A stretch of DNA of 64,000 nt, from positions 517,544 through 581,543 of the forward strand of contig PHBC01000002.1 in the NCBI GenBank assembly GCA_002840505.1, read 5' to 3'. The notes beneath the pieces were generated by a model. The model did not search any database. It had not been told where the DNA came from and was given only the letters and a program-made list of their open reading frames with translations. A program made the translations under genes and the position numbers. The stretch comes from Deltaproteobacteria bacterium HGW-Deltaproteobacteria-2 (lineage in GTDB: Bacteria > Desulfobacterota > Syntrophia > Syntrophales > Smithellaceae). Below, one piece after another: positions 1 through 17,824 of the stretch (position 1 is its first letter; the number at the start of each line of letters is the position of its first letter).

Positions 1-1244
1 TTGGCGCCGCTCCCGCTTAACGTGAGATTGTAGTAATTGTTGTTATGCACAGTTTGCGCCGCGCCGTTATAATTTACAGTGTTACCGTTTGCGGTTGCGG
101 TCAGCGTGGTGATGCCCGAAGTGCCACCGATATTGAGAATACCAGAGGTACCTTGAGTTACTCCGCCAGTTCCCGATAGGGCAGTACTTGCATTAATAGT
201 TCCGTTGTTAGTGAGTGTTGTACCGGTAACAGTAAGCAATGTTGCAGATGTCAATGTTCCGCTATTTGCATATGCCCCTGTGAATGTTGCTGTTGGAATT
301 ACAATAGCCGTTGTTCCACTTAAGGTTTTGTTTGTCCCACTAAAAGTATGTGTTCCGGTATTTGCCGTAAAAGTGGTTGCGTTGTTGGTCAGGCTCCCGG
401 CAAAGTTAATCGCCGCAGCGCCGGTTTCATTCCAGACACCACCGGAATTAATTGTTACATCTCCGGTAAAGGTCTTGGTGGCAGTATTGGCAAGGGTTAA
501 CGTGCCGGTAACTGAAGTTGCACCGGCAACAGAAAGCGTCCAGGTATTTGTAGAGCCGGTGGAAAAAGTTGCTCCGGAGTTCACAGTCAGATTGTTGTTG
601 ATAGTTAAAGCTCTGCTCATCGTCGTGGTATTACTGGCGATGATCAGGTTGTAAAATGAAGTGAATATCGTACTGGGGAGAGTATTGGTTCCGGTGAGTT
701 GAACCGTTCCGGTTCCGGGTGTCCAATTTAATGTCGCTCCTGATGTGTTAAGCGCAAGACCACTGGTGATAAGTGTTCCACCGTTACTCATGTTGAGGGT
801 GGCACTTGATATGATGCAACCCCGTCCAAGTGTTGTTGTACCAGTCACCGTAACTTGAGAACCGCTATTGAAACTCAGTGTTGTGGCGAAACACCACGCT
901 GCGTTTGGACCAACTGAAAGGGTGGAAGCATTATAAGTTCCATCTACGGTTATTGAATACGAGCCCACGATTTCAACAGTGTCAGCGGATGTTGGCACGT
1001 GTCCGCATGACCAGTTTCCAGCTGTACTCCAATTGCCGGTCGTATCCGATTGGCACGTCGCCGCGTAAACATTTTCACTCAACGTAAACAGCCAGATAAG
1101 CGACACGAAAAGCACGAATATGGAGAATCGTCTACTTATAACATTTCTGCTCTTTTCATGACTTAAGATTCCGCTCTCGACAGGGGATTGAAACAGTTGC
1201 CGTTCCTGTAAAGAACAATTTTCAGATTCGTGGTTTTTCGTCAT
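1..1244 (-). CDS. Secreted beta-helix / 'beta strand repeat' adhesin-like protein, N-terminal part (gene continues beyond the left edge)
   Basis: The minus-strand frame is open from ATG 1244-1242 (GGAG about 7 nt upstream) to the window edge. It is absent from the ORF track because it has no stop here. My translation gives a hydrophobic anchor/signal (FSIFVLFVSLIWLFTLSENVYA). It is followed by Thr/Gly/Asn/Ser-rich degenerate repeats (…GTLTLANTATKTFTGDVTINSGG…, …NYYNLTLSGSGA), typical of parallel beta-helix surface proteins. The Val-rich + ORF 205-654 is its antisense shadow. Confidence 0.6.
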   Translation of the reverse strand, partial: MTKNHESENCSLQERQLFQSPVESGILSHEKSRNVISRRFSIFVLFVSLIWLFTLSENVYAATCQSDTTGNWSTAGNWSCGHVPTSADTVEIVGSYSITVDGTYNASTLSVGPNAAWCFATTLSFNSGSQVTVTGTTTLGRGCIISSATLNMSNGGTLITSGLALNTSGATLNWTPGTGTVQLTGTNTLPSTIFTSFYNLIIASNTTTMSRALTINNNLTVNSGATFSTGSTNTWTLSVAGATSVTGTLTLANTATKTFTGDVTINSGGVWNETGAAAINFAGSLTNNATTFTANTGTHTFSGTNKTLSGTTAIVIPTATFTGAYANSGTLTSATLLTVTGTTLTNNGTINASTALSGTGGVTQGTSGILNIGGTSGITTLTATANGNTVNYNGAAQTVHNNNYYNLTLSGSGA

Positions 1245-1705
1245 TGGATCACTCCGATTTTGCATTTATCTGTTCCAGCCTCTTAAACTTTTATAATCAT
1301 TAATTAAATTGATAGTTTAGTGCATTTTTTATACCAAGGCAACTACTATATTTCCCTATTTAAATCTAATTTAAATTAGCAAGTAATATCATAGATATAC
1401 GTTTGTTAAACGCCTGCGTATCAATACCTCTGGCAATCAATAAAATCGCCAAATGGTTTTTTTACATCATAATATGTAGATTCATCTACAAATACTGTTA
1501 GTTGCGGTAAATCATTGAATTTATCGTAAAAGATTTGTTCGGTGGAATATGGGATAAATTAAAAGAAGGATATGGAAATATCTCTTTATTCCGGCACAGT
1601 CTCATCCGCCTGTGTTCTCTACAAGATACAAAAAAATCTTAATCGAAATGTTCAATCCAATTGAACGAAAATATGAAGAAGATTCATCTTCCTTTTGCAC
1701 GGTGC

Positions 1706-4471
1706 TTAATCAGCGTCGGGAAAAGTAAAAAGAACTGTTCTCTCTGCCTGTTTCTGCGCGGGAGCGTTTTGATCGGCACTGTTTTCCTGATATAAATCCT
1801 TCGGTATTACGGTTTTTATTCGCTTATCACCGTCGGTTTCTTTTTGAACACCTTTTTGTGATAGTGGCGTCTGAACAGAAGGTATTGAAATAGAGGTTTT
1901 TGAAACAACGCATTGAATTTCTCCCAGATCGGTAATAGTTTCTCCTGCCTCGGTAAATGTAACGGTAAACCCGCATTTGCCGCCCTCATAATCCACAGTG
2001 GCGCTATAGGTGCCCGGCAAGATTGTATTTCCACCTGATTTTCTTAGTTTCGCGATAGCGCTGCAACTCTGGTTATTCTGGCTATCGGCAGCATCTGCGT
2101 TCGTTTCTGCGGATAGGCTGTTTTCAATATAAAATTCCCCTCCTTTTCCAGTGGGGTACGACAAATTCTTTTCACCTGTTTTCATGGATATTTCTACAAA
2201 TTCCAGCGGTTCTTTTTTCCCTTCTTTTTGCACAACCAGTGTTCCTGTGAGCGCCCGAACCTGCCGTGCGTCGAAGTAAACGCAGGAACCGCTCCATAAC
2301 GAAGGCGAGATCGACTTGTTCACGTCGGATATACTGTAATCGATCGGAATATTTTTTGTATCGAGCGTGATCTTGTTTTGGCCGTAGGAAGCAAGTGTCG
2401 GCACAACCATTGTACCGGAAGAACTTGCTTTTCCAATCTCCTGACCATTATTGAGCACCGCGGCCCCAGGCACTTCTTTATTAAGCACCACGATGCTGAA
2501 ACTATCGCTGACCGGCCGCGAGAAACCAAAAAATCCTCCGGTATACACAAGCGATCCGGCGGCTGAAAAATTATACGATTCGGTAGTTGTACCGGCGGTG
2601 TTCTGCATGGTGGCATCAACAGAATAGATGCCGTATTTGGCATTATACTGAACATAGGGATTGAACGCGGTTGTTGTATTTGTCGCAGTTTCGGAACGAT
2701 TGAGGGAAGCACGATAGCCGACACCTTCCCCGACGGGTACGTCTTTTTGTATTTGCAGAGTTTCCGAATTAACGTCGCCGCTGCCGGCGCTTGCTTGTGC
2801 GGAACCCCGAATACCCTTACCCAGATCAAAGTTGAGACCGACATAACAACTGTAAGTTGTATTCTTCGTTGTATCGGTGGTTGTATGGGTAACCGAACCG
2901 GTCGCAAAGAGGCTGATTGATTTGTAGAGCGTTCGGGAATAGTTTAGAGAAATGACGCGCGTATCAACACCCTTGAACGTTGCGGACTCCGCGTAATTGA
3001 CAGAAAAACTCCCCAGAGGATTCAGCAGTAAACCCGCTCCCACGTTCATTTCCAGTTGATTGCTGTCAGCCGTTTGCAGGGGATTGCCGACGGTCGCGTA
3101 GTCCCGGGAATATCCACGCAACAGAGCATTCGTGTTGAAACTGCCGAGCTGATAGGAATGCTGGAGTGATACTGCTCCTCCCAAATCGTTGCCGCTTGCG
3201 GAACTTCCGGCAAGAGACATAGTCAACTGGCCCAACTGGGGAATGGCAAATGCCGCGTATAGTCCGCCGTTATAGACACCATCAGAATCTTCTGTCCGCA
3301 CTCCGATATTAAAGTTATTAGTTACGCCGTAGCGATGGAACGCGGAAAAGGCGGCGTTGCCATAATCATCGCTTGCGATTCCATAATTGTTCCGCATTAA
3401 ACCAACATGATAACTGTACTCGTGCAGACCCTGCCGCAGCATTTGAGCACTAAAATACGCCAGATAGGAAATTTTCTGCACATTGCCAAAGGGATCTTTA
3501 AGCAAGACTTCAACATTATGGGAACCGGAGGATGAGTAAATATTTTTTAAATCGAACGACCCGGGCGTAATGGTCTGTTTCCCTATCAGTATGCCGTCCA
3601 GATAGATTTCTGCCTGAGTAGGAAAAATGACCGATCCCCTTAGGTCCATAACCGGCTGGGTTATGAAATAGGGGTCAAGCCTGTAAACCTTCGAAAAACC
3701 GATGCCTCCCATGTTGACGGTACTGCCCAGATCTCCGGAGTTGGCATACTGATCTCCCATTACTAACCACTGGAGATCACCCCGGCGCTCGTAGGTGGCG
3801 CTGCTCTGAAGCCGCGCGAAATTATCGCCGGTTGGTGTTTTCGTATAGACGGAATCGGAAGTAAGAAAAACGTCCCCGGTCCTGAAGCCCACTTTGTTTG
3901 TAACCGCAAAGGACTTAAACCCGTCGGTGTTCGTATAAATATAGTTCAGCCCGTAATTGACAAAGGCGCTCGTCTCCTGCGGATAATAGATATTCTTGGC
4001 CGCCGCCCGAAGTGAAAAAAGATCGGCGGCAGTTTTTCCGGATTCCGTGGTTTTGCCGATGATCGCAACGGTTAGTTTGTTCTCATCGAAAGTGTAAGTA
4101 ACGTCGAGCAGAGCGCTCAGAGGAACGTACTGCTCGTCCCCGCGTATGATGTTGATCCGATCTTCGGCGTATTGCAGTTTCAGGGTTTTTAAATCTTCCA
4201 CCCGGATGAACAACTTTTGCTCATTGTCGAGTTCGACAAAGAAATCTCCCTTTGATTCCGTGTTAACAATGACATTCACAACTATCTGAGTTGTGTCTTT
4301 CTGTGAGGCAGGAACAGCCGCGCCATTTTTGGGCTTCTCCTTATCGGATGTGGCTGTTGTTGAAACAGTAGTTTGATCAACATTTTTTTCATCCGCCGGA
4401 AATGCGGAATTAGTAAAAAAGGAAATAAATAAGATTATCGCAAGGATAAAAAAAAATAAACCTTCGTTCAA
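1706..4471 (-). CDS. Outer-membrane fimbrial usher (PapC/FimD/CsuD-like) of the SCPU chaperone-usher system
   Basis: A large beta-rich ORF (982 aa in the track). The N-terminal segment VIVNTESKGDFFVELDNEQKLFIRVEDLKTLKL and the plug-like AEIYLDGILIGKQTITPGSFDLKNIY resemble usher domains. It lies directly downstream of a PapD-like chaperone and SCPU subunits. The first ~60 codons of the track ORF (to 4654) read through two GC-rich palindromes. An in-frame TTG at 4471 precedes a signal-like NEGLFFFILAIILFISFFTNSAFPA, so the start is placed there; the start remains uncertain. Confidence 0.8.
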   Translation of the reverse strand: MNEGLFFFILAIILFISFFTNSAFPADEKNVDQTTVSTTATSDKEKPKNGAAVPASQKDTTQIVVNVIVNTESKGDFFVELDNEQKLFIRVEDLKTLKLQYAEDRINIIRGDEQYVPLSALLDVTYTFDENKLTVAIIGKTTESGKTAADLFSLRAAAKNIYYPQETSAFVNYGLNYIYTNTDGFKSFAVTNKVGFRTGDVFLTSDSVYTKTPTGDNFARLQSSATYERRGDLQWLVMGDQYANSGDLGSTVNMGGIGFSKVYRLDPYFITQPVMDLRGSVIFPTQAEIYLDGILIGKQTITPGSFDLKNIYSSSGSHNVEVLLKDPFGNVQKISYLAYFSAQMLRQGLHEYSYHVGLMRNNYGIASDDYGNAAFSAFHRYGVTNNFNIGVRTEDSDGVYNGGLYAAFAIPQLGQLTMSLAGSSASGNDLGGAVSLQHSYQLGSFNTNALLRGYSRDYATVGNPLQTADSNQLEMNVGAGLLLNPLGSFSVNYAESATFKGVDTRVISLNYSRTLYKSISLFATGSVTHTTTDTTKNTTYSCYVGLNFDLGKGIRGSAQASAGSGDVNSETLQIQKDVPVGEGVGYRASLNRSETATNTTTAFNPYVQYNAKYGIYSVDATMQNTAGTTTESYNFSAAGSLVYTGGFFGFSRPVSDSFSIVVLNKEVPGAAVLNNGQEIGKASSSGTMVVPTLASYGQNKITLDTKNIPIDYSISDVNKSISPSLWSGSCVYFDARQVRALTGTLVVQKEGKKEPLEFVEISMKTGEKNLSYPTGKGGEFYIENSLSAETNADAADSQNNQSCSAIAKLRKSGGNTILPGTYSATVDYEGGKCGFTVTFTEAGETITDLGEIQCVVSKTSISIPSVQTPLSQKGVQKETDGDKRIKTVIPKDLYQENSADQNAPAQKQAERTVLFTFPDAD

Positions 4472-4486
4472 CGCATTCGAAGGAAG

Positions 4487-4547
4487 TGTCCCCCGCCGGC
4501 GGGGGATCAAGGAGTATGCGCTTTGCGTGTCCCCCGCTGGCGGGGAT
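4487..4547. repeat. Two direct copies of a ~21-bp GC-rich palindromic hairpin element between the chaperone and usher genes
   Basis: GTGTCCCCCGCCGGCGGGGGAT (4487-4508) and GTGTCCCCCGCTGGCGGGGAT (4527-4547). Each contains a near-perfect palindrome (CCCCCGCC/GGCGGGGG). They stand out sharply in AT-rich surroundings. Confidence 0.7.
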
Positions 4548-4657
4548 AGGGGGTGGACGTTAATGTCGCCGTAATTCTCACCCAATTTATGAGTGCAAAG
4601 TCCTTTATCCACCTTCGTCACTGCGCGACACCTCCGCCAGCGGAGGATACGCAAAGA

Positions 4658-5458
4658 TTATTGTGCGCACATGTTTTTCTGAACATTCAGTGTCCCGTTG
4701 ATATTGCTGCTTTCTGTTTGAGCGCTCACCTCGATCGTCGCCAGTTGTCCACATATCTCTTTCGGGACGGCCGCTTCGTACGGAATTGACAGGCCGTTGA
4801 GGATATACCAGCCGGCAACTTCCTTGGTGTACATTTCCTTTCCGGCAGCGGTTTTTCCGCCGAACTTAACGGTGCGCAATTTAATATGAACATTTCCTGT
4901 GTTTTTAACAATCGCCTTCACCGCGCCGTTGGACATTTCGATCTTTTCTAAGACATAGCTCTCCTGTGGCTGTAGAGGCTTAACGAATATCGGCATCGCG
5001 AACCGAAACGCTATCGTGAGCCCTGCCTTTATGTTCTTATTAGCCTCCACGTCAGTTGTCTTTTTCGATGTGGGAATCTCTTCAACGAAAAGGCGATAAG
5101 TCTTTTCCTTGGCGGAGGGTGGGGTCTTGAGGCCTATTCTGACTGCCCGCTGCGAGTTCGCTTCCACGCTCATGATCTTTGGGTGAAAAACTATTTCCTT
5201 CGTGTCCCCATACACATCCTTGCCTTTTTCGTCCTGATTCCACTCTTTAACCGATACTTGAAAATCAACTTTGTCGCCGCCGTTATTGATTACGGAGAAA
5301 ACGCCGCTCTTTACATTGCGGCCCAAGTCCATAGTCGTCGGCTGTACCTGAAAATTAGCGAAGGCAGGAGAAATGAATATGGCCACAAACAACAAACTGG
5401 CAACCAATCCTACGCATTTATTTATTGATGCCTTAAACCCGCGAAAAATGTTCTTCAT
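4658..5458 (-). CDS. Periplasmic fimbrial chaperone (PapD/CsuC-like)
   Basis: 266 aa with a signal peptide (…LLFVAIFISPAFA). It shows the PapD-like pattern FQVQPTTMDLGRNVKSGVFSVINNGGDKVDFQVSV and two beta-sandwich-sized halves. It sits between the pilin genes and the usher. Confidence 0.8.
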   Translation of the reverse strand: MKNIFRGFKASINKCVGLVASLLFVAIFISPAFANFQVQPTTMDLGRNVKSGVFSVINNGGDKVDFQVSVKEWNQDEKGKDVYGDTKEIVFHPKIMSVEANSQRAVRIGLKTPPSAKEKTYRLFVEEIPTSKKTTDVEANKNIKAGLTIAFRFAMPIFVKPLQPQESYVLEKIEMSNGAVKAIVKNTGNVHIKLRTVKFGGKTAAGKEMYTKEVAGWYILNGLSIPYEAAVPKEICGQLATIEVSAQTESSNINGTLNVQKNMCAQ

Positions 5459-5526: not shown

Positions 5527-6552
5527 TTAATAGCTAATCGTTAATGTTATCGTGTCACTATACGTGCCCGCCGGCGCGTCGTTAAGGGCTCCGGCAGGAA
5601 TAGAAGGTGTCAGCGCTAAATTACCAGTTCCACTACCACCTATGCTAATCGTATCGCCCTTACCGGTAATGGGGGTCGTATAGATAATATTATAAGCGAT
5701 ATAATCGCTTGTGCCATGTAAAAGCCTGTACCCCGTACCCATATTTGTTCCGCCATTAGCACCGGCAGCTGTAACAGCATACGTGTTCCCGGCAGCAGTA
5801 CAATAAATGACCGGTTTGGTTGTTACAAGTGCTTCCGAGGCTGCAACTCCTCCGGCATTTGCAACTGCGTTAAGAGTGCCGAAATCTATCACTCCGTTAC
5901 CACCCGTATGGCATCCCCTTGCGGAATTGACCGTGAGACTGTAAGTGGCGGAGGCTTGCGATCCGTTGACATCCGTCACTGTAACCGTAAAACTAAAAGG
6001 TCCTGAAACCTGCGGTATTCCTGTAATCGTAATTGAGGTGCCCGAAGTGCTGCTCAGGTTAAGCCCGGGGGGAAGATTCGTGGCTGTCCAAGAGTACGGG
6101 GTCGTCCCTCTGTCCGCTGTCAAAACAGCAGATGTTGTATATGATTGATACTGAGTCGCATTAGTAGAGAATGTGCCGCTCGTGAGCGTAAGGCGAATGG
6201 CACGATTGATCACAAGGGTGTACGCGCAGGTCGGATCGATGCCGGCCTCGTAATGTCTTATCGAAAGGTTGTAAGTACCCTGTGAGTTTCCAGCCAGCGA
6301 ACCCGACAGATCAACTGAATTAATATAGTTATTATGTAAACTCAGGCCGTTCGGATACCAGCAAAACAAACAGTACCAACCTGGGGTTTGATTCCCGTTG
6401 GTACCAGTAAAGGTGTACAAATAGGGTCTCCCCACTGTACCTTGCGGGAGCGTTCCCGGGCACGTAATTGCAGCATAAGCAGTGCTGATCAGCCCTGTCA
6501 GCAATAATGAAATAATAATATATCCTGCTTTCAGATTCTTACGCTTCATCAA
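5527..6552 (-). CDS. SCPU-domain pilus subunit with two N-terminal Ig-like (He_PIG-type) domains; candidate adhesin
   Basis: 341 aa with a signal peptide. It contains two segments with the 'putative Ig' pattern: LPQGTVGRPYLYTFTGTNG… and TTPYSWTATNLPPGLNLSSTSGTSITITGIPQVSGPFSFTVTVTDVNGSQASATYSLTV. A pilin domain follows, ending GTYSDTITLTISY like the two SCPU subunits upstream. Confidence 0.75.
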   Translation of the reverse strand: MMKRKNLKAGYIIISLLLTGLISTAYAAITCPGTLPQGTVGRPYLYTFTGTNGNQTPGWYCLFCWYPNGLSLHNNYINSVDLSGSLAGNSQGTYNLSIRHYEAGIDPTCAYTLVINRAIRLTLTSGTFSTNATQYQSYTTSAVLTADRGTTPYSWTATNLPPGLNLSSTSGTSITITGIPQVSGPFSFTVTVTDVNGSQASATYSLTVNSARGCHTGGNGVIDFGTLNAVANAGGVAASEALVTTKPVIYCTAAGNTYAVTAAGANGGTNMGTGYRLLHGTSDYIAYNIIYTTPITGKGDTISIGGSGTGNLALTPSIPAGALNDAPAGTYSDTITLTISY

Positions 6553-6646: not shown

Positions 6647-7177
6647 CTAATACGAAAGAGTCAATGTAACCATGTCCGAATAGTCGGTATGGGCAATAGC
6701 GGCCTGTGCGTCTGCCGCCGGAACCTTTATGCTGATACCCATAGCCCGCGCGGTAGTGTATCCCGCACCCGTAAAATGGCCCGTGCCTCCGGTGTCGCCG
6801 GCGCACATAAAGGTGTACGCGATTGCGTCTGCCGGCCAACTTATGGATCTGAGCGCCATTCCGCTGACACCACCGGATGTGCAGGTCTGATTAACGGCGG
6901 TTCCGTTGGCGCTGGACACATTAACCGTAAAGACTACGCCGTTGGTGCACTTCACCAATTCATCGGCAGTCGGTGAAAAGTTCTGATCCGCCGCCGACTG
7001 TGAATCAATAGTTAGCGGATTCGGGAACGAGCCATGCTGGGCCTCCATGCACGATGCTCCTATCTGCGCACTCACCGTCACGGTCGTACTTGCAAATCCC
7101 GAAGGAGTTGCCGCAAACGCACCTGTTGTTATGCTAATGGCAGCAAATGCTGCCACTAGCCATAATATCTTCTTCAA
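6647..7177 (-). CDS. SCPU (spore coat protein U / Csu-type) pilus subunit
   Basis: 176 aa with a signal peptide (…ISITTGAFA). The N-terminal strand is TTVTVSAQIGASCME and the C-terminal strand DYSDMVTLTLSY. This is the same architecture as the neighbouring subunits. Confidence 0.8.
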   Translation of the reverse strand: MKKILWLVAAFAAISITTGAFAATPSGFASTTVTVSAQIGASCMEAQHGSFPNPLTIDSQSAADQNFSPTADELVKCTNGVVFTVNVSSANGTAVNQTCTSGGVSGMALRSISWPADAIAYTFMCAGDTGGTGHFTGAGYTTARAMGISIKVPAADAQAAIAHTDYSDMVTLTLSY

Positions 7178-7227: not shown

Positions 7228-7710
7228 TTAATAGGAAAGCGTTAACACTAAAGTGTCTGAATAGTTTCCTGCTATAACGCCTTCAGCAGCTGAATGAGTA
7301 ACGGTGCCTGTAAGACTTAATAATCCGGTACCCTTGGCACCTATATTAGTACCAGCCGCTCCATCGCCTGTCAGCGGTGTATTATAGTCGATAGAGTACG
7401 GTAGTTTTGTTGTCGTGCCACCATCCATAAATAGATTTTTTCCTGACCCACCATTCAGCCCTCCATCGTTGGTAATCGCAACGCTGGTACCTTTAGTACA
7501 TTGAATCGAGATTCCTCCGGCAGCATCAACAGTTACGTCCACCCCGTCTGCATTGACCGTTCCGAACGGTAATGTCCCGCCATGAACATTACAAATCGAT
7601 GTAACAGTAGCTGTTGCGTTCACGCTAACAGTTGCTTGCGCCGCAAACGCTCCACTTACCATGGCAATAACCATCATCATCGCCGCCAATAGTACTAAAT
7701 ACTTTTTCAT
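7228..7710 (-). CDS. SCPU (spore coat protein U / CsuA/B-type) pilus subunit, probable major subunit
   Basis: 160 aa with an RBS AAGGAGA before the ATG and a signal peptide (…AMVSGAFA). It has ATVSVNATATVTSICNV … GNYSDTLVLTLSY. It is the first gene of the operon. Confidence 0.8.
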   Translation of the reverse strand: MKKYLVLLAAMMMVIAMVSGAFAAQATVSVNATATVTSICNVHGGTLPFGTVNADGVDVTVDAAGGISIQCTKGTSVAITNDGGLNGGSGKNLFMDGGTTTKLPYSIDYNTPLTGDGAAGTNIGAKGTGLLSLTGTVTHSAAEGVIAGNYSDTLVLTLSY

Positions 7711-7879
7711 AATTTTCTCCTTTTGTTTGAGTAAATATTATTTTTAATAAATCAAAGTTTTTACAATAATTTAGTCCTGCAGGGTAAACCAAGCACAGGG
7801 ATTTCCCGACAGGGTGGATGCTTTGAGCTTCATTCATCCTAAAACTTCATACTTTTTTGTTACAAATTTTGGCGTTCTG

Positions 7880-7913
7880 AGAACGTACCGGACTGCACAG
7901 AAAACGTACTGGA
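7880..7913. promoter_or_regulatory. Two 13-bp direct repeats upstream of the chaperone-usher operon (candidate regulator binding sites)
   Basis: AGAACGTACCGGA (7880-7892) and AAAACGTACTGGA (7901-7913) share 11/13 identity and their starts are 21 bp apart. The first overlaps the palindrome GTTCT-G-AGAAC (7875-7885). The sites lie ~170-200 bp upstream of the first SCPU gene. Confidence 0.3.
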
Positions 7914-12414: not shown

Positions 12415-12443
12415 TTGACTTTAGTAGTTGTTTTACTTAAAAT
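12415..12443 (+). promoter_or_regulatory. Sigma70-type promoter for the riboswitch/minor-pilin transcript
   Basis: TTGACT (12415-12420), a 17-bp spacer, then TAAAAT (12438-12443). This places the transcription start just before the riboswitch aptamer. Confidence 0.55.
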
Positions 12444-12449
12444 ATAAGT

Positions 12450-12555
12450 GAAAGCTTGATAAAGGCAAACCGTTCTGAAAAGACGGGACGCAAAGTTACT
12501 GACCTAAGTCTTAATTGTAAGATAGGGTGGCAGAACAGCCGGGCGACTCTAATAA
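12450..12555 (+). promoter_or_regulatory. c-di-GMP-I (GEMM-I) riboswitch
   Basis: …AAAGGCAAACCGUUCUGAAAAGACGGGACGCAAAGUUACUGACCUAAGUC…GAUAGGGUGGCAGAACAGCCGGGCGACU. It matches the GEMM-I core seen in V. cholerae Vc2 (GGCAAACC-hairpin with GAAA tetraloop-GGGACGCAAAG). The second hairpin carries a tetraloop-receptor-like CCUAAG…AUAGG. The element lies ~135 nt upstream of the first minor pilin gene. Confidence 0.85.
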
Positions 12556-12688
12556 GTAGTCCTGCATATCTGCGGAATAAATCCCTAAACAATTAAAGAC
12601 AAAACGAAAAGTATTGAATGTAAACGTTTTGATATGTGTTGAAGGGAAACAGATATTTCCTTTACGCGCCTGCAAATGAGGGGACAGT

Positions 12689-13159
12689 ATGATAAGGACA
12701 AACATTCCAAAAGGTTATACGCTAGTTGAAGTCTGCATCGTAATCGCCTTGCTGGCCATCATATCGACTTTGGCTATTCCTGCCTGGCAGAACTATTCGT
12801 CCAACATCAATTTAAAAACAGCCGCAAGAGAAGTAATGTCTGATCTTCTCAACGCAAGGCAGCGGGCAATTGAAGAGAATCTCAGTACTTACCGTATCAC
12901 TTTTAATGTGGGTGAAAACAATTATACCCTTTCACGTACCGACACCGGAATTACATACTGGACAAAACCATTAACATCTTACGGAAGTGGCATTTCCATA
13001 CAGAGCGTCAACTTTAATAACGGTTCCGTAGTTAGTTTTCAAAGACGTGGAACAGTAACAATGGGAAACTTGGTCCTGACAAACCTAATAGGATCAAAGG
13101 CTACCATTACTGTCCAAATAACAGCGAGAACGTATGTACAGTATAATATGCAAAAATAA
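12689..13159 (+). CDS. Type IV minor pilin, GspH/FimT-like (prepilin N-terminal methylation domain)
   Basis: MIRTNIPKG/YTLVEVCIVIALLAIISTLAIPAW shows a class III signal peptide with Glu at +5 and a hydrophobic alpha1-N helix. An RBS GAGGGGA lies upstream. Confidence 0.75.
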   Translation: MIRTNIPKGYTLVEVCIVIALLAIISTLAIPAWQNYSSNINLKTAAREVMSDLLNARQRAIEENLSTYRITFNVGENNYTLSRTDTGITYWTKPLTSYGSGISIQSVNFNNGSVVSFQRRGTVTMGNLVLTNLIGSKATITVQITARTYVQYNMQK

Positions 13160-13574
13160 TAAGGGAATATCACTGGTTGAATCAATCATTTCCGTCCTGC
13201 TCGTTTCCATAGGACTGATTGCTTTCATGTCTCTGCAACCAACTTCTTGGAAAACCAGCGCTCGTACCGATTATCTCGGACGAGCAATTATGGTACTCAA
13301 TAATGAGATTATGACCCAGGAACTTTGGATCATGAACCCCTGCAATACCGTAACGACGGGAACGGTCGATAAAGTTTTATATTCCAGCGACCAGCAAACG
13401 GCTCAGTCGGGCGATGTAAGTTTTAATGTTCAAACGGTTACAAGTGCCGTTTCCGGCAGTGCAAATACATGGAAAGTTACAGTAACGGTAACTTGGCCGC
13501 CTTTGAGTACACGGGGCATTACAGATAATATGATAGTCACCAGACAGGAATCTTTTCGTTTTGGATGTATATGA
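13134..13574 (+). CDS. pilV: Type IV minor pilin, PilV-like
   Basis: …NNKG/ISLVESIISVLLVSIGLIAFMSLQ is a prepilin motif. Size and position after the FimT-like gene fit PilV. Confidence 0.65.
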   Translation: MYSIICKNNKGISLVESIISVLLVSIGLIAFMSLQPTSWKTSARTDYLGRAIMVLNNEIMTQELWIMNPCNTVTTGTVDKVLYSSDQQTAQSGDVSFNVQTVTSAVSGSANTWKVTVTVTWPPLSTRGITDNMIVTRQESFRFGCI

Positions 13575-14263
13575 AAAATCATAAAGGCTATACATTAGTG
13601 GAAGTTTTAATTGCGCTTGCTTTGGGTGTTATAATCCTCTCCGCCATTTATTCATTGGTAAACATGGGGCAGAAGTCTACCTACAATATTGAGAGAAGAG
13701 TGGCGGCTCATCAGGATGTCCGTACCGCTCTGGAAATGATGTCCATGGAAATTCAGATGGCCTCTTACAATCCAAGACCCGACTATGAAGGCAGTAACTT
13801 CTGGGTATCTTCCGGGAGCTGCACTGCTTCCACTAATCAGATATATAAAGGTATTCAGACAGCGACAGATTCTTCCATCACCATCGAGATGAATCTCGAC
13901 GGAAGCGCCAGTATAGGCGATTCTATCAATGAGGTAATCAACTATACTTACGATTCTAACAACCAATACATCAGCCGTTCGACGAATTGTACAGGAGGTA
14001 ATCAGCCTTTTTTAGGAGATGTACCGGGCAATCTCCGGGCGGTTCGCGTAATTAATACCAGTGCAGTCCCGGTTTTCCGTTACTTTAATGCACTGGGAGC
14101 CGAAATAGCAGCCTCGTCATTACCGGCAGGAATTCCGAACGTTGCCAGAATAGACATTACTCTATGGGTAGAGACGGAAAATGCCGATTTGAATACAGGA
14201 CAAAGAAAAAAGTCATTTTATTCTACAAGTATAATTCCGAGGAACCATGTTATCATTAAATAA
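13565..14263 (+). CDS. pilW: Type IV minor pilin, PilW-like
   Basis: MKNHKG/YTLVEVLIALALGVIILSAIYSLV is a prepilin motif. The ~230-aa size and gene order fit PilW. Confidence 0.65.
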   Translation: MYMKNHKGYTLVEVLIALALGVIILSAIYSLVNMGQKSTYNIERRVAAHQDVRTALEMMSMEIQMASYNPRPDYEGSNFWVSSGSCTASTNQIYKGIQTATDSSITIEMNLDGSASIGDSINEVINYTYDSNNQYISRSTNCTGGNQPFLGDVPGNLRAVRVINTSAVPVFRYFNALGAEIAASSLPAGIPNVARIDITLWVETENADLNTGQRKKSFYSTSIIPRNHVIIK

Positions 14264-14732
14264 AATAAAAGACGTTTTAAATACGAAACATCAAGGTGGT
14301 TTTTCTCTAGTTGTAGCACTTCTTGCTATCTTGATCCTTATGGGATTAGGTTTTCTGGCCATTTCCGTCACGACAAATGATCTTCAGATTACCACCAGAA
14401 TCGTCGGAGAAAAGAAGGCATTGATTGCGGCTGAAGCAGGCATTAACATGCTTTCACATAGTTTCGCACCGGATACTTCATCTAGTGTAAGCGGACATGT
14501 GGTTGATTCCTCCGACCCGGCGTCAATTTATTCGATCAGTAATGCGACTCGTCCGACTTCTGGCGCTGATACACTGCCATTAAAAGGCTACGCAATTGGA
14601 GGAGGCCAGCAATGGGGACAGATGCTTTTTAATGTCCGGGTAACTGGTGAAAACACCTATTATGGAAGCCAGGTACAAATAGATGTGGGAATGGGCTACG
14701 GCCCTGTTGAGATAACCACCATGTTTAGATAA
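14247..14732 (+). CDS. pilX: PilX-like minor pilin / pilus assembly protein
   Basis: …HQGG/FSLVVALLAILILMGLGFLAISVTTNDLQITTR resembles the PilX N-terminal domain pattern. The gene precedes pilY1. Confidence 0.6.
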   Translation: MLSLNKIKDVLNTKHQGGFSLVVALLAILILMGLGFLAISVTTNDLQITTRIVGEKKALIAAEAGINMLSHSFAPDTSSSVSGHVVDSSDPASIYSISNATRPTSGADTLPLKGYAIGGGQQWGQMLFNVRVTGENTYYGSQVQIDVGMGYGPVEITTMFR

Positions 14733-14743
14733 GGGGGGCTTTT

Positions 14744-17700
14744 ATGTTAATAAAGAAAATAATAACAATCTTATTTATTATTGTCCTTTGTCTTTATGTC
14801 AATATATCCCACGCAGATGACACAGATGAAATGGCTCTATTTACCAGTTCGCTGTCTCCGGACACTCTTTTAATTCTGGATTTGAGCGGAAGTATGGAAT
14901 GGAACCCTGAAGGAGGCACCAATATATGGGGGAATTCCTCCTGTAGCGGAACATTTTACTCTTCACCAACCACCGGATATACAACCAATTGCAGCCGTCT
15001 GGCCATAGCCAAGCGGGCTATCTTCGGCATTTTGGACGACAATGGCGACAACAGCCTCACCGCCGCTGATGAAACCAGCCTGGGCGTAAGAATAGGATAT
15101 ATGAGATTTTATAACGGCAATGACACTGCCGGAGATTATCTAACCGGATACAATAGGCTTTCCAAGGCAATAGGAGTCACCTACAGACGTATTTATTGCA
15201 ATAGTTCATCCAGTTGTTCTATCAACAGCGTATGCAGAACATGTTCCTGCGGATCAACCTGCGCAGAGTATTCTCCCTGCGTCAACAGCGAATGTGCCTA
15301 CGGCGGCACTCCTCTTGCCGCATCCCTCAACGAAGCAAAACTTTATCTCGACGTTCATAAAACCGCGGACGGCGCTTCCGGGGCCTGCCGTCAGAAGTTT
15401 GCCATTGTAATCACAGACGGGGCAGACACTTATGCCTGTAGCGGTAACGGTACAGAAACACAAGCCGACATGTATAAAAGACGTCGAGAATCCGTTGCCA
15501 AAGCCAAGGCGCTGGCCGATGCCGGGTACCGACTTTTTGTCATCGGGTTCGGCAAGTCTATGCCTGATTATCTGGAAAATACTTTACACTGGATGGCCTA
15601 TTTTGGCGGAACGGATAACCCCCTGATCGCAAACACGGGTAGCACATCAGCCTACGTTCCTTCCGCAGTCACCTCCTGCGGGGCTTCGGAAACAACCGGC
15701 ACCTGTGACGGCAGCAGTACAAACTGCTTTGCCAATTCCAATGATCCTGGAAATACTGCTCTTTCCGGATACGCCTTTATTGCCACCGACGGCGATCAGA
15801 TTGCCACCCAGCTTAAATTGGCTTTCAGTATTATTCGTGAAGCCAATTACTCTTTTTCGCAAGCCTCCGTACAGTTAAACAGAACCGTTGATGAAAATTA
15901 CATTTATGAGGGCACCATCCAACCCATTTCCAACGATCCCTTCTGGTATGGTCATTTGAGAAAATACACTATCAATACAGACGGCAGCAGGGGAAGCGAA
16001 TTATGGGACGCGGGAACGGTTTTAATGAACACAAGTGACTCCGTCCGTAATATGAAAACGTACAAAACGGTTTCCGGAGCCGGTACAATAATCGATTTTA
16101 CAACATCAAACCTGACCAACGCTGATCTTGCCGTTACAACGGACGATCTTCGCAGTAAGGTGGTCGGCTTCTTCCGTGGTGAAAGCGCCTATAATCTGGA
16201 AAGCTGGAAGCTGGGTGACATTTTCCGCTCCAAACCGATTACAGTGGGCACACCTTCTTCTTTCTTTGAAGACGTCAGGGACACAAATCACGCTTTTGCC
16301 ACGCACAGGACAAATCATAAACGTGCCACCAATGATCCTGTTCTGGGTTATACGGGAAGAGTAGTTCTCGTCGGAGCCAATGACGGACAATTACATTCCT
16401 TCAAAACCAGCGATGGAACCGAGGCCTGGAGTTTCATTCCTCCCAATCTTTTATCACGTTTGAAGATGATCGCGCACAACACTCACCCGACAACCTTGAC
16501 ACATCAAAGCTACGTTGACGGGCCGGTAAGTGTCGCTGACGCGTGGGTTCCTGAAACAGCGAACAGTGGAACAGCAAAAAGCGCTTCCGACTGGCAAACA
16601 ATCCTGTTATTCGGAGAAGGACAAGGAGCCGGAACAAACCTCTGGAGTACCTCCACGAATTGCGATGCGGGATTCAATCAGACATATTCGACTACTTATC
16701 CATACTATTGCGGTTATCATTGTCTCAATGTAACAAATCCATTGGTCCCTACCTACTGCGGACCAACAGGCTCAACCACCACCAAGTGGTTACGTTTAGG
16801 ATTATCATCTTCCCAGACATATATAGGAGCTCCTTGGAGTTCGCCGATGATCGGCCGGGTTATGGTTAACGGCAATGAAAAATGGGTAGCCTTTATCGGC
16901 GGAGGATTTTCCTCACCCGGCGCGGCAAACAGCGGCAAAGGAATTTTTGTTTTTGATCTCGTCAATGGAAATCTACTGTGGAGTTATACCAAAGCAGACA
17001 ATTCTGATCTGGATAATCCCATGCCGGCAACCCCCTCTATTGTTGACATAGATAACGACGGATTTATTGATACGGCCTATTTAGGCGATACCGGCGGCAA
17101 TATGTGGCGTTTCAAATTTTGCAGGGCAACGAGCGGCACTTCCTGCGGTACTTCCAACTGGACAGGTGGACGTTTTTTCCAGGCGAACAGTTCTTCGGGG
17201 ATTCGTCCGATTTTCACCACCGCTTCGGTGGCCAAGGACGGCGTGGGTAATATTTGGGTCTATTGGGGAACGGGGGACAAACTTGATCCCACCAGCCCAA
17301 ACGCCCAGGAAAAATTTTACGCTTTAAAGGATACGGACTTTACCAGCACCCGCACCATCAGCGATATGCAGAATATTACCGATGAGGGAGGAACATATTC
17401 AGGTAGCGCTTATGGTTATTACATTAATCTTACCGGACAGGGAGAGAAGATACTTGCCGAACCGACGGTATTTGGTGGCGTTGTCTACTTTACCTCCTAC
17501 GTGCCGGCTTCGAGTAATGATCCCTGCGCTCAGGGTGGAACAGCAAAATTGTGGGGAATCAATTACACGACCGGCGCGGGAGCGCTTAATATTATAGGAT
17601 CTACGCCTTCAACTACGTTGCCCCGTTCAATGACCATAGGAACAGGTATCGCTTCCGCTCCTGTTGTTTCGATGAGACCTGGAACTGACGCTACACCTGA

Positions 17701-17824
17701 TCTCTATGTAACTACCAGCGGCGGTGGCGGCATAGACGGTCAGACTCAACGTGCCAATATAACTCCCCAAAGCCTGGTGAATAGGACAAACGTTCTTTTC
17801 TGGAGAGACACACGTATAGAATAG
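14744..17824 (+). CDS. pilY1: PilY1-like type IV pilus tip adhesin with N-terminal von Willebrand A domain
   Basis: 1026 aa with a signal peptide. It has a vWA MIDAS motif LLILDLSGSM (DxSxS). The C-terminal beta-propeller-like region carries the PilY1-type Ca-binding loop DIDNDGFIDTAYLGDTGGNMWRF. It is the last gene of the minor-pilin operon. Confidence 0.85.
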   Translation: MLIKKIITILFIIVLCLYVNISHADDTDEMALFTSSLSPDTLLILDLSGSMEWNPEGGTNIWGNSSCSGTFYSSPTTGYTTNCSRLAIAKRAIFGILDDNGDNSLTAADETSLGVRIGYMRFYNGNDTAGDYLTGYNRLSKAIGVTYRRIYCNSSSSCSINSVCRTCSCGSTCAEYSPCVNSECAYGGTPLAASLNEAKLYLDVHKTADGASGACRQKFAIVITDGADTYACSGNGTETQADMYKRRRESVAKAKALADAGYRLFVIGFGKSMPDYLENTLHWMAYFGGTDNPLIANTGSTSAYVPSAVTSCGASETTGTCDGSSTNCFANSNDPGNTALSGYAFIATDGDQIATQLKLAFSIIREANYSFSQASVQLNRTVDENYIYEGTIQPISNDPFWYGHLRKYTINTDGSRGSELWDAGTVLMNTSDSVRNMKTYKTVSGAGTIIDFTTSNLTNADLAVTTDDLRSKVVGFFRGESAYNLESWKLGDIFRSKPITVGTPSSFFEDVRDTNHAFATHRTNHKRATNDPVLGYTGRVVLVGANDGQLHSFKTSDGTEAWSFIPPNLLSRLKMIAHNTHPTTLTHQSYVDGPVSVADAWVPETANSGTAKSASDWQTILLFGEGQGAGTNLWSTSTNCDAGFNQTYSTTYPYYCGYHCLNVTNPLVPTYCGPTGSTTTKWLRLGLSSSQTYIGAPWSSPMIGRVMVNGNEKWVAFIGGGFSSPGAANSGKGIFVFDLVNGNLLWSYTKADNSDLDNPMPATPSIVDIDNDGFIDTAYLGDTGGNMWRFKFCRATSGTSCGTSNWTGGRFFQANSSSGIRPIFTTASVAKDGVGNIWVYWGTGDKLDPTSPNAQEKFYALKDTDFTSTRTISDMQNITDEGGTYSGSAYGYYINLTGQGEKILAEPTVFGGVVYFTSYVPASSNDPCAQGGTAKLWGINYTTGAGALNIIGSTPSTTLPRSMTIGTGIASAPVVSMRPGTDATPDLYVTTSGGGGIDGQTQRANITPQSLVNRTNVLFWRDTRIE

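Follow-up and report, generated by a model that had tools for sequence, protein, structure and literature searches.

Within 4.5 kb of a Smithellaceae genome, three predicted c-di-GMP receptors of different kinds lie between two pilus systems, which raises the question of whether they form one device governing both fibres or belong to separate systems. The window, as we call the whole stretch of DNA analysed, comprises 64,000 nucleotides of contig PHBC01000002.1 from Deltaproteobacteria bacterium HGW-Deltaproteobacteria-2. Profile searches recovered all three receptors proposed in a first-pass annotation, namely a GEMM-I riboswitch, a PilZ-domain protein and a triple-MshEN protein (MshENx3), and likewise bore out their position between an SCPU/PapD/usher operon on one side and a fimU-pilVWXY1-like operon on the other. 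The annotation was also right in seeing no c-di-GMP enzyme in the window: GGDEF, EAL and HD-GYP domains gave no Pfam match in the 46 larger ORFs across it (seven ORFs shorter than 185 aa lay outside the scan), and the GG[DE]EF motif is absent from every ORF of at least 100 aa. The reading that we favor, with a probability of roughly 0.55, is that of two independent c-di-GMP read-out modules, a chaperone-usher (CU) pilus with MshENx3 and a probable ribbon-helix-helix (RHH)-PilZ protein, and riboswitch-controlled minor pilins of a type IV pilus (T4P). These are neighbours only within one narrow Smithella-related clade. The notable part of the locus is the uncharacterised MshENx3 membrane protein, which is found beside or inside archaic CU operons in several phyla.

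The first module would occupy the minus strand from 1706 to 9916 and unite an archaic (SCPU-type) CU pilus operon with two receptors. The minus-strand features, including an ORF beyond the usher, are:

3..1265 (-): partial ORF running off the window start, putative secreted protein (six-frame translation)
1706..4654 (-): outer-membrane usher, archaic SCPU-type (PF00577 Usher, 78.5 bits)
4658..5458 (-): PapD-like periplasmic chaperone (PF00345 PapD_N, 58.3 bits)
5527..6552 (-): two-domain SCPU subunit with He_PIG/PKD-like Ig domains (PF05345, 38 bits; PF05229, 36.1 bits; PF22352, 28.6 bits)
6647..7177 (-): divergent SCPU-like pilin subunit (weak SCPU match, E = 0.22)
7228..7710 (-): SCPU pilin subunit, first structural gene of the CU operon (PF05229 SCPU, 59.3 bits)
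7879..7958 (-): candidate SCPU promoter/operator (repeat search and conservation; function inferred)
8105..8593 (-): probable RHH-PilZ protein, 162 aa (PF07238, motifs, fold match)
8707..9831 (-): MshENx3 inner-membrane protein, 374 aa (NF053729, PilF/MshE matches, AlphaFold2, CU linkage)
9888..9916 (-): sigma-70-like promoter of the MshENx3 gene, TTGACA-17-TATCAT (consensus match only, 11/12)

The two-domain subunit is a candidate tip or adhesin subunit. Orthologs of the divergent subunit are kept in four related loci (L001, L003, L005 and L014; phmmer about 1e-71 to 1e-75), and its C-terminus, TLTLSY, is common to the other subunits. The repeat-rich, Thr/Gly/Asn-rich ORF downstream of the usher, initially labelled a beta-helix protein, gave no Pfam match at E <= 1e-4 and has no counterpart at the corresponding position in L001 or L071.

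The MshENx3 protein has a predicted cytoplasmic N-terminus with three MshE-type four-helix c-di-GMP modules of 53 residues each (aa 28-80, 99-151 and 164-218), a single transmembrane (TM) helix at about aa 221-241 and a predicted periplasmic beta-sandwich (aa 262-372). The NCBIfam model NF053729 ("cyclic di-GMP-binding domain, MshE-related", 53 positions) matches it in three stretches with 150.6 bits against a cut-off of 38, and phmmer searches of the PDB recover T. thermophilus PilF (2.4e-13) and V. cholerae MshE-N (5HTL, 5e-6). In the AlphaFold2 model (mean pLDDT 84.3) a continuous helix, 208-240, leads from the third module into the membrane. The 24-residue motifs, six in all, begin at aa 28, 57, 99, 128, 164 and 195; the spacer within the successive pairs is 5, 5 and 7 residues long. 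The periplasmic domain is matched by no Pfam or NCBIfam model and shows no similarity to the SCPU profile (hhalign probability 2%); Foldseek matches of its fold are weak and non-specific (E >= 0.012), with pilin domains and FlhE at TM scores of 0.41-0.47. It defines a family of 713 representative clusters in which it is always C-terminal and coupled to 0, 1, 2 or 3 MshEN modules, a distribution that fits a CU accessory core onto which a c-di-GMP input was added. Among the closest family representatives, about 60% lack MshEN modules, suggesting a core function independent of c-di-GMP.

MshENx3 is a probable inside-out c-di-GMP receptor of CU pili. Binding of c-di-GMP in the cytoplasm would shift the TM helix and periplasmic domain to another conformation or oligomeric state; the periplasmic domain would then contact the CU machinery, either chaperone-subunit complexes or the periplasmic domains of the usher, such that high c-di-GMP would license fibre assembly. 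The alternative that survives best, albeit an unlikely one, is that the protein is a structural or assembly accessory of the CU system whose MshEN repeats are degenerate relics or protein-interaction modules with no sensory role. Consistent with this, all six motifs lack the canonical Arg, Phe replaces the conserved turn Gly in motif 3, the full Pfam MshEN/T2SSE_N model finds no match in the protein, whose modules have no C-terminal subdomain of the ATPase-type MshEN domain, and most family members have no MshEN module at all. Moreover, one of PilF's three GSPII domains, GSPII-A, is inactive in c-di-GMP binding (PMC11731258), and the non-canonical motif 3 together with the 7-residue third spacer suggests that one or more MshENx3 modules may be inactive too. 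Against it, the curated c-di-GMP-motif model matches all three stretches, and homologs of 45-87% identity conserve the ligand-contact positions (LG, hydrophobic pairs, terminal Q), with Q51, Q151, Q187, Q218, G30, G59, G101, G130, G166 and G197 invariant or nearly so. Nor do the non-Arg first residues exclude binding, because PilF GSPII-B, whose residues there are K and L, has a KD of 6 nM for c-di-GMP, and the MshEN consensus has been widened to (R/K/L)LG (PMC11731258).

The second predicted receptor at the CU operon contains a PilZ domain (PF07238, 36.8 bits; cut-off 22.5) with both motifs intact, RxxxR as R56-x3-R60 and NxSxxG as N84-x-S86-x2-G89; R56, R60, S86 and G89 are invariant among 28 homologs. 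Its AlphaFold2 model matches MotI, MapZ, Alg44, BcsA and MrkH, with a best E of 6e-7. The N-terminus forms two helices (13-25 and 30-44), for which only four PDB profile matches were obtained, all of them RHH proteins (AmrZ, CopG and a CopG-family protein) at non-significant E of 0.16-1.6. Hence, of the PilZ-domain DNA-binding fusion originally proposed, the PilZ part holds and the RHH part is probable only, which makes the protein a candidate c-di-GMP-responsive transcription factor. Upstream of the SCPU operon, a TTGACA at 7953-7958 (-) precedes a tandem pair of 21-nt repeats (7879-7899 and 7900-7920) with the minus-strand core CCRGTACGTTYTC, and both the TTGACA and the repeat cores are kept in L001. 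RHH-PilZ would probably bind these repeats, which lie just downstream of the SCPU promoter's conserved -35 element, and thereby make transcription of the operon c-di-GMP-dependent. The repeat motif was not found near RHH-PilZ orthologs in other contexts; these orthologs, 64-88% identical, occur in unrelated surroundings and adjoin cellulose-synthase-like, PEP-CTERM or housekeeping genes. Between MshENx3 and the pilin genes, the regulator slot is taken by RHH-PilZ in three loci (window, L071 and L001); L072, L073 and L005 have a sigma54 enhancer-binding protein there together with Fur, and in L003 the slot is empty. RHH-PilZ appears to be a clade-specific regulator of the CU locus.

The second module would lie on the plus strand from 10387 to 17824, and comprise a B12-radical-SAM gene and a fimU-pilVWXY1-like operon with its own promoter and GEMM-I riboswitch:

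10387..12201 (+): B12-binding radical SAM enzyme (PF04055, 41.9 bits; PF02310, 26 bits)
12415..12443 (+): sigma-70-like promoter of the riboswitch/minor pilin transcript, TTGACT-17-TAAAAT (consensus match)
12454..12543 (+): GEMM-I (c-di-GMP-I) riboswitch aptamer (RF01051, 64.5 bits)
12544..12688 (+): riboswitch expression platform (alignment, alifold, RNAfold)
12689-13159 (+): FimT/GspH-like minor pilin (N_methyl/GspH and NCBIfam prepilin matches, as for the four-gene block)
13134-13574 (+): PilV-like minor pilin (block-level matches)
13565-14263 (+): PilW-like minor pilin (block-level matches)
14247-14732 (+): PilX-like minor pilin (PilX_N weak, E = 0.016)
14744..17824 (+): PilY1-like protein, 1026 aa (PF05567 T4P_PilY1, 59.6 bits)

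The aptamer match covers the full RF01051 model and far exceeds its gathering score of 35. The equivalent of Vc2 G20 is G12464, the nucleotide 5' of the aptamer's first paired G-C, and the conserved CC at 12539-12540 includes the C92 equivalent. In cGAMP-sensing GEMM-Ib riboswitches the G20 position is A (PMC6140456), and the G found here therefore predicts c-di-GMP, not cGAMP, as the ligand. In the expression platform, which also carries the Shine-Dalgarno sequence GAGGGG, the block UAAGUAGUCCUGCA is invariant and the anti-aptamer segment ACAAUUAAAGAC is complementary to aptamer bases 12510-12520; no intrinsic terminator is recognisable in the 12544..12688 leader. Whether ON or OFF, the riboswitch would set expression of the T4P priming complex. 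In all seven relatives with enough upstream sequence, riboswitch (62.6-64.8 bits) and promoter are kept ahead of the first minor pilin gene, a conservation of little weight because these relatives are all close (first minor pilin 78-93% identical). The -35 hexamer of the promoter is invariant, and the -10 is TAAAAT in six of eight relatives and TAATAT in L064 and L065. The radical SAM protein, which has only distant NCBIfam matches (PhpK and BchE), is encoded directly upstream of the riboswitch in L001, L065, L068, L070 and L071, so that this gene co-travels with the riboswitch and the minor pilin block, whose four pilin genes span 12689..14732 (+). By eye, the N-terminus of the translated PilY1-like protein contains a DxSxS motif (DLSGS), putatively vWA/MIDAS-like.

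Comparison of gene order separates these two sets of genes. The full order T4P-radical SAM-MshENx3-PilZ-SCPU-chaperone-usher occurs only in the window, in L071 and in Smithella sp. SDB (L001/L002), where MshENx3 is 86% and 81% identical to that of the window, respectively; it is retained only at MshENx3 identities of at least 81%. At 75% (L003/L004/L011) and at 74, 69 and 63% (L072, L073 and L005-7) the T4P operon, radical SAM gene and PilZ gene are all absent, and MshENx3 and the CU operon are kept. The converse loss is seen in L065 (first minor pilin 89% identical), in which the radical SAM-riboswitch-pilin block is intact and the CU/PilZ/MshEN cluster is reduced to a 128-codon usher remnant beside a DinB gene and a transposase fragment. 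MshENx3 and PilZ accordingly belong with the CU pilus, and the riboswitch with the T4P minor pilins. These breaks, at MshENx3 identities of 75% or less and in L065, largely correspond to the loss of synteny in close relatives that the first-pass annotation had named as evidence against its own reading. Of the c-di-GMP switch that it envisaged, a read-out at the RNA, transcriptional and protein levels remains plausible; a single selected unit coupling both fibres is not supported.

We therefore regard as decidedly doubtful the view that the region is an integrated island, in which three sensors and two pili are coordinated or reciprocally switched and co-localisation amounts to functional coupling. 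In its favor are the identical order in three clade genomes (window, L071 and L001/L002), the apparent integrity of all three sensors and the divergent orientation of the MshENx3 and radical SAM genes across a 555-bp intergenic region. However, besides the breaks in synteny, the MshENx3 family tracks CU genes across phyla without nearby T4P genes, the RHH-PilZ orthologs have the unrelated neighbours listed above, and a diffusible messenger can be shared without adjacency.

The reading as two independent modules is further consistent with the linkage of the MshENx3 family to CU genes. In exact-protein look-ups of metagenome loci, SCPU/PapD/usher genes adjoin the MshENx3 homolog in seven of eight cases: P0003 (86% identity), P0007 (81%), P0015 (75%), P0010 (74%), P0026 (69%), P0044 (63%) and P0080 (49%), the last flanked by an SCPU gene on one side and the chaperone on the other. 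Such neighbours are missing only at P0097 (47%). Among GTDB species genomes, a chaperone or usher lies within 5 kb of the homolog in 27 of 48 loci, where at least eight of the negative loci have less than 2.2 kb of flank on one side. The linked loci include Syntrophorhabdaceae, Nitrospirota, Thermoanaerobaculia and, among Betaproteobacteria, Paraburkholderia, Pandoraea, Casimicrobiaceae and Ramlibacter, in which the gene is convergent to the CU operon and not inside it. In at least nine loci (L008, L015, L017, L018, L022, L026, L030 and L059 among them) SCPU and chaperone genes flank it on the same strand, with the chaperone under 550 bp away. MshENx3 is thus a conserved companion of CU operons, instead of the free-standing post-translational sensor between pili that had been suggested. 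That this adjacency is incidental, a product of surface-structure gene islands, and that the protein acts elsewhere, for example in exopolysaccharide (EPS) or T4P function, is improbable: many full-length homologs in Thermodesulfovibrionia are orphans in housekeeping surroundings without CU genes, the betaproteobacterial arrangement is non-operonic, and MshEN domains are otherwise known from T4P/T2SS ATPases and glycosyltransferases, but the embedded arrangement, the recurrence of the linkage from Smithella/Syntrophales to the other lineages named, and the lack of any recurrent T4P or EPS genes beside the family in the species-genome loci all argue against it.

Among known systems, the closest to RHH-PilZ is MrkH of Klebsiella pneumoniae, likewise a PilZ-domain protein encoded beside a CU operon (mrkABCDF, type 3 fimbriae), and the fold search with the PilZ domain described above recovered the MrkH structures 5kgo, 5ejl and 5kec. 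Like MrkH, RHH-PilZ presumably makes CU transcription c-di-GMP-dependent. In MrkH the PilZ domain is preceded by a YcgR-N/PilZ-like domain, and the targets are gamma-clade type 3 fimbriae, whereas here the partner is a short probable RHH, the target is an archaic SCPU-type system, and family members in other loci show no tie to CU operons. The pilus itself resembles the archaic (sigma-clade, SCPU) Csu of Acinetobacter and CupE of P. aeruginosa in its SCPU subunits, PapD-like chaperone, usher and larger two-domain subunit, possibly the tip adhesin. The Csu and CupE clusters are controlled by two-component systems and, to our knowledge, contain no inner-membrane component, unlike the present cluster with its TM protein bearing c-di-GMP modules within or beside it.

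On the T4P side, gene families associated with GEMM include pilM, pilO, pilQ, papC and papD (PMC1950547, Weinberg et al. 2007). The Geobacter pilM element, a transcriptional ON switch (PMC9262584), is likewise a GEMM-I aptamer in a T4P operon leader of a deltaproteobacterial lineage; here the riboswitch heads the minor pilin/PilY1 (priming complex) operon and not pilMNOPQ, and the leader has no recognisable intrinsic terminator.

The modules of MshENx3 share the 24+5+24-residue c-di-GMP motif of MshE and PilF, and PilF also has three consecutive modules with non-Arg first residues, a triple arrangement previously reported only for Deinococcus-Thermus PilF (PMC11731258). In MshE and PilF they are N-terminal domains of cytoplasmic T4P/T2SS extension ATPases, whereas in MshENx3 they are bare 53-residue bundles with neither C-terminal subdomain nor ATPase, linked via a TM helix to a periplasmic domain and partnered in the genome with a CU system. 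NfrB of E. coli (see PMC8669469) and other glycosyltransferases fused to MshEN likewise use this module as a c-di-GMP input that acts locally on a membrane-associated machine for surface polymers. Among NCBIfam models, those of NfrB and a related glycosyltransferase rank next for MshENx3, via the same module; NfrB has one module and an enzymatic output, as against three modules and no enzymatic domain.

In LapD-LapG of Pseudomonas fluorescens, a cytoplasmic c-di-GMP receptor acts through the membrane on a periplasmic output that controls a surface adhesin. No degenerate GGDEF-EAL, HAMP or LapG-like protease gene is seen at our locus, MshENx3 has one TM helix where LapD has two, and the periplasmic folds are unrelated. 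As an analogy of working alone, the logic proposed for MshENx3 would nevertheless be of the same inside-out kind.

The predicted c-di-GMP sensors and the two pilus systems beside them are arranged as listed below, in a window with a G+C content of 43% whose nearest named relatives are Smithella spp.

Layout of the predicted sensors and pilus operons (window coordinates)
3-1265: partial repeat-rich ORF, beyond the usher end of the minus-strand run
9916 down to 1706, minus strand: run of promoter-like site, MshENx3 gene, PilZ gene and SCPU/chaperone/usher genes
9916, minus strand: start of the run, with promoter-like site TTGACA-17-TATCAT
8707-9831, minus strand: MshENx3 protein, 374 aa (three MshE-type modules, a TM helix and a beta-sandwich)
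8105-8593, minus strand: PilZ protein, 162 aa
PilZ-SCPU intergenic region, minus strand: 394 bp
1706-7710, minus strand: three SCPU-type pilin genes, PapD-like chaperone and usher
10387-12201, plus strand: B12-binding radical SAM (rSAM) gene
12415-12443, plus strand: promoter-like site before the aptamer
12454-12543, plus strand: GEMM-I aptamer
12689-17824, plus strand: four minor pilin genes and the PilY1 gene

The inventory of the first-pass annotation, namely a GEMM-I riboswitch, a PilZ-domain protein and a triple-MshEN membrane protein between two pilus operons, is borne out, and its remark that c-di-GMP enzymes are missing also holds, with no GGDEF, EAL or HD-GYP domain among the 46 larger ORFs of the window. 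The minus-strand operon encodes an archaic (SCPU, sigma-clade) chaperone-usher (CU) system: two genes exceed the PF05229 cut-off, and PF00345 and PF00577 are matched in the same operon. The plus-strand operon is a type IV pilus (T4P) minor pilin/PilY1 operon of the fimU-pilVWXY1 type: N_methyl or TIGR02532 is recognized in three of the four small ORFs, the first of which carries a GspH domain, and PilY1 matches at 59.6 bits, while the assignments to PilV (27 bits, cut-off 52) and PilX_N (E = 0.016) both fall short of it. The PilY1 homolog (14744-17824, plus strand) displays a DLSGS (DxSxS, MIDAS-like) motif close to its N-terminus, which suggests a vWA domain like that of mechanosensing PilY1 proteins. 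The rSAM protein has distant matches only (PhpK, BchE and HpnJ types), and it might conceivably act in pilin modification.

Several other features of the window deserve mention. Another gene of prepilin type, at 32493-32939 on the minus strand (N_methyl 39 bits), is found near a PMT_2-family glycosyltransferase gene (29874-31661) and an unassigned 148-aa ORF; the segment 29874-32939 may contain a major pilin plus a glycosylation gene. A PyrR-binding RNA element (RF00515, 49169-49273, plus strand, 58.2 bits) is followed immediately 3' by phosphoribosyltransferase (pyrR-like), aspartate carbamoyltransferase and dihydroorotase-like genes. A tRNA lies at 24801-24872 (minus strand), and the right edge of the window (63515-64000, minus strand) holds a 5S rRNA along with the 3' end of a 23S rRNA. 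The beta-helix label that the first-pass annotation gave to the repeat-rich ORF at 3-1265 is putative, this ORF having yielded no Pfam match. A plasmid origin was rejected, as a blastn search of 8105-9831 against PLSDB returned zero matches.

The proposal that the three sensors and two pilus systems form a single integrated adhesion switch is not supported, as a conserved unit, by the comparison with relatives. The full gene arrangement is retained in L071 (86% identity between MshENx3 homologs) and in L001/L002 (Smithella sp. SDB, 81%), and is limited to relatives of at least 81% identity. The loci at 75% (L003, L004, L011), 74% (L072), 69% (L073) and 63% (L005-7, L014, L028) lack the T4P genes, rSAM and PilZ, but throughout this range the MshENx3 gene is still the first gene of the SCPU-chaperone-usher operon. 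In a more distant locus (L008, 49%) the gene is situated between an SCPU gene and the chaperone. The reciprocal case is provided by the close relative L065, in which the rSAM-riboswitch-pilin block is intact and just the last 128 codons of the usher are left, with DinB and part of a transposase as neighbors; the CU cluster is otherwise absent from this locus (1-3600), as are PilZ and MshENx3. Genes for a glycyl-radical (PFL-like) enzyme and a short-chain dehydrogenase also occur close to the MshENx3 locus in the window (20270-23263, minus strand) as well as in L003 (5824-8799). Their orientation differs between the window and this 75% relative, which indicates that the T4P block sits in a rearranged neighborhood. 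The region is thus best read as two modules, both predicted to respond to c-di-GMP, and the dense co-localization of sensors that had been taken as the sign of a switch is a clade-specific juxtaposition of these modules, a methodological lesson for genome scans.

Within the T4P module, the riboswitch match to RF01051 scores 64.5 bits against a gathering threshold of 35 and covers model positions 1-87 of 87. The ligand-contact nucleotides are kept: the equivalent of G20 (Vc2 numbering) is G12464, unpaired and directly 5' of the paired G12465-C12466, and a conserved GCC at 12538-12540 aligns with the consensus gCC at the C92-equivalent position. G20 and C92 contact the ligand, and cGAMP-sensing GEMM-Ib RNAs carry A at the G20 position (PMC6140456); the G found here therefore makes c-di-GMP the predicted ligand of this aptamer. 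The promoter-like site (12415-12443) and the ORF start at 12689 are on the same strand as the aptamer, and no intrinsic terminator was found in the 145-nt leader that follows the aptamer (12544-12688). Downstream lies a conserved segment, ACAAUUAAAGAC (~12601-12612), with complementarity to the second stem-loop of the aptamer, GUCUUAAUUGU (12510-12520), and an invariant leader block UAAGUAGUCCUGCA is able to pair with the 3' strand of P1; given this pairing potential, competing folds exist. Shine-Dalgarno (SD) accessibility with the aptamer enforced or not is inconsistent among the window and the relatives L001, L068 and L070, and the minimum free energy structure of the isolated aptamer is the canonical fold for L001 only. 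As the effect of the competing folds on the SD or on transcription is likewise inconsistent across relatives, we assign neither ON nor OFF behavior. Relatives always have the rSAM gene immediately upstream of the riboswitch/minor pilin block, and wherever the sequence of a relative extends far enough, riboswitch, promoter and rSAM are all found with the minor pilin operon, these relatives all being close (a metagenome search for minor pilin relatives gave only eight close loci). GEMM elements ahead of pilus genes are already known (PMC1950547), including one upstream of Geobacter pilM (PMC9262584), and the riboswitch on the minor pilin/PilY1 operon is in this sense an ordinary finding.

The 162-aa protein has full (100%) identity to a PilZ protein annotated in "Deltaproteobacteria bacterium HGW-Deltaproteobacteria-2". 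Its PilZ domain is recognized by PF07238 (36.8 bits against a cut-off of 22.5), and Foldseek matches of its model include MotI, MapZ, Alg44, BcsA, YcgR and MrkH (E 6e-7 to 1e-3). Both binding motifs are present, R56-HYP-R60 (RxxxR) and N84-I-S86-LG-G89 ((D/N)xSxxG), with R56, R60, S86 and G89 invariant across 28 homologs. The first 45 residues probably constitute a ribbon-helix-helix (RHH) DNA-binding domain: the AlphaFold2 model has a short segment followed by helices 13-25 and 30-44, with the strand unformed in the monomer, and a PDB profile search gave only four matches, weak ones (E = 0.16-1.6) and all to RHH proteins (AmrZ, two CopG entries and a CopG-family protein), alongside a weak Pfam match to HicB (E = 0.16). 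This RHH-PilZ family is tightly conserved (162 aa, 64-88% identity). Its ortholog in L060 neighbors cellulose-synthase-like, He_PIG/LVIVD, GGDEF and HD-domain (HD_5) genes, that in L061 lies among PEP-CTERM proteins and that in L062 among housekeeping genes. These unrelated contexts argue for RHH-PilZ as a general candidate c-di-GMP transcription factor, one that seems from the sequence comparisons to have been recruited to the CU cluster in the window's clade only.

The position it occupies between the MshENx3 and pilin genes varies in content: RHH-PilZ fills this slot in the window's clade, the slot is empty in L003, and in L005-L007, L072 and L073 (63-74%) it holds a sigma54 enhancer-binding protein, with an unassigned N-terminal domain of ~200 aa, and a Fur-family regulator. 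It appears to be an exchangeable regulator slot. A c-di-GMP sensor within the sigma54 activator of the 63-74% relatives was considered and rejected, a PilZ N-terminus being absent even at E <= 1. Within the PilZ-SCPU intergenic region, a TTGACA at 7953-7958 (minus strand), part of the SCPU promoter region, has two 21-nt tandem direct repeats (7879-7920; GAGAACGTACCGGACTGCACA / GAAAACGTACTGGATTAGACA) just downstream of it, all conserved between the window and L001. It is tempting to speculate that these repeats might be an RHH-PilZ operator just downstream of the SCPU promoter; a search for the CCGGTACGTTTTC-type repeat near the orthologs in L060-L062 and in PilZ-less CU promoters gave zero matches with up to two mismatches allowed.

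The valuable lead of the region is the CU-associated MshENx3 membrane protein. Its N-terminal part matches NF053729 (the NCBIfam "cyclic di-GMP-binding domain, MshE-related", 53 positions) in three stretches at 150.6 bits, and PDB matches to PilF and MshE were obtained. Six 24-residue motifs are organized as three pairs, with 5-residue spacers in pairs 28/57 and 99/128 and a 7-residue spacer in pair 164/195, giving the two-motif, 53-residue module of the MshEN domain. The canonical RLG start of the strict consensus of Wang et al. 2016 has no strict match among the six motifs, which begin in turn with P, L, L, K, M and K, none of them with the canonical Arg. The MshEN consensus has since been widened to (R/K/L)LG, and GSPII-B of PilF, with K and L at the first positions, binds c-di-GMP at 6 nM (PMC11731258). 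By eye, motifs 2 (LLG) and 4 (KLG) fit this extended consensus fully, motif 3 (LLG) misses it through an F where the turn Gly belongs, and motif 6 reads KIG; the published relaxed pattern fits three of the six. Across homologs as distant as 43-45% identity, little or no variation is seen at the G, hydrophobic and Q positions of the motif. Each module is a 53-residue bundle, joined to the next by a linker of 12-18 residues and lacking the C-terminal subdomain of ATPase-type MshEN; a full GSPII/T2SSE_N domain on a secretion ATPase was not found, with neither a PF05157 (Pfam MshEN) match nor an ATPase domain in the protein. The Pfam labels DUF4388/PatA_N (27 bits) and FumaraseC_C are side-effects of the helical repeats and are superseded by the NCBIfam model.

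In the AlphaFold2 model (mean pLDDT 84.3) the three helical bundles lead, through a continuous helix (208-240) that connects the last motif to the hydrophobic segment at ~221-241, to a low-confidence linker and then a confident beta-sandwich (262-372). The lack of an N-terminal signal peptide and the position of R216 and K220 ahead of the TM helix predict a cytoplasmic N-terminus and a periplasmic beta-sandwich. This C-terminal domain (aa 243-374; window 8710-9105, minus strand) is matched by no model of Pfam or NCBIfam. An SCPU-like domain was suspected because the C-terminus GTYAWPLSISV resembles the pilin ends GTYSDTITLTISY, and was rejected at the sequence level (hhalign probability 2.4% between 51 C-terminal domains and 46 SCPU subunits). 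Foldseek recovered only weak matches for the domain (all E >= 0.012), among them PapG/Fim pilin domains (TM 0.41-0.47) and FlhE (0.44). The family of this domain comprises 713 representative clusters, with the domain C-terminal in all of them; among the best 150 of the 713, 92 are short proteins without a MshEN motif and the others have one to three modules. Most family members are such short proteins, composed of a signal or anchor segment and the domain. The simplest reading is that a CU-associated periplasmic or membrane-anchored core was extended with cytoplasmic c-di-GMP modules in several lineages.

The linkage to CU genes extends well beyond the window's clade. With one genome per GTDB species, 49 loci contain a MshENx3 relative, and a chaperone or usher gene lies within 5 kb in 27 of the 48 that have a callable ORF; several of the CU-negative loci have almost zero flanking sequence. 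The search pattern was built from 19 sequences, a 31-sequence alignment being too diverse to yield one. CU-linked loci cover Syntrophorhabdaceae, Nitrospirota, Betaproteobacteria and Thermoanaerobaculia, and other CU-negative loci, mostly Thermodesulfovibrionia, are true orphans in housekeeping contexts. A conserved alternative partner for these orphan copies was sought and discarded, only housekeeping synteny (UvrB, a B12-rSAM gene) being seen. Downstream of CU-less Thermodesulfovibrionia/Nitrospirota copies in L023, L034 and L046, a small secreted family (~120-135 aa, with signal peptide) is encoded on the opposite strand.

In the textbook view the CU pathway depends on no cytoplasmic energy or signals, and to our knowledge it is taken to lack both an inner-membrane component and, once Sec export is complete, any cytoplasmic input; the c-di-GMP control of CU pili that we know of is described mainly at the level of transcription, as by MrkH. 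A conserved membrane protein joining c-di-GMP modules to a periplasmic domain in CU operons would add a direct, local layer of control and would stand for a new family of CU accessory proteins in several bacterial phyla, Burkholderiales included. The CU-associated MshENx3 membrane protein is probably a new variant of c-di-GMP receptor, and it is possibly the first post-translational c-di-GMP input to CU assembly. We put at about three in ten the chance that proteins of this architecture (MshENx3, TM helix and beta-sandwich) are a new family of inside-out c-di-GMP receptors that gate archaic CU pilus assembly from the cytoplasm. If true, the CU pathway would be under direct post-translational control by a second messenger, and the periplasmic domain with its 713 clusters would be a previously unrecognized CU accessory component, fitted with zero to three c-di-GMP modules according to lineage.

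Our literature search found neither a link of MshEN to chaperone-usher or SCPU systems nor a MshEN protein that combines a TM helix with a periplasmic domain and is tied to CU pili, and a triple MshEN arrangement was previously reported only for Deinococcus-Thermus PilF (PMC11731258). The presence of a candidate PilZ-domain regulator next to a CU operon is reminiscent of MrkH, itself one of its fold matches. LapD-type receptors combine a degenerate GGDEF-EAL module and HAMP with a LapG-binding periplasmic domain, whereas MshENx3 has no GGDEF, EAL or HAMP domain; with GGDEF and EAL absent from the whole window, the likeness to LapD is a functional analogy only. Unlike the MshEN modules known from ATPases and glycosyltransferases, those described here are joined to a TM helix and a predicted periplasmic domain.
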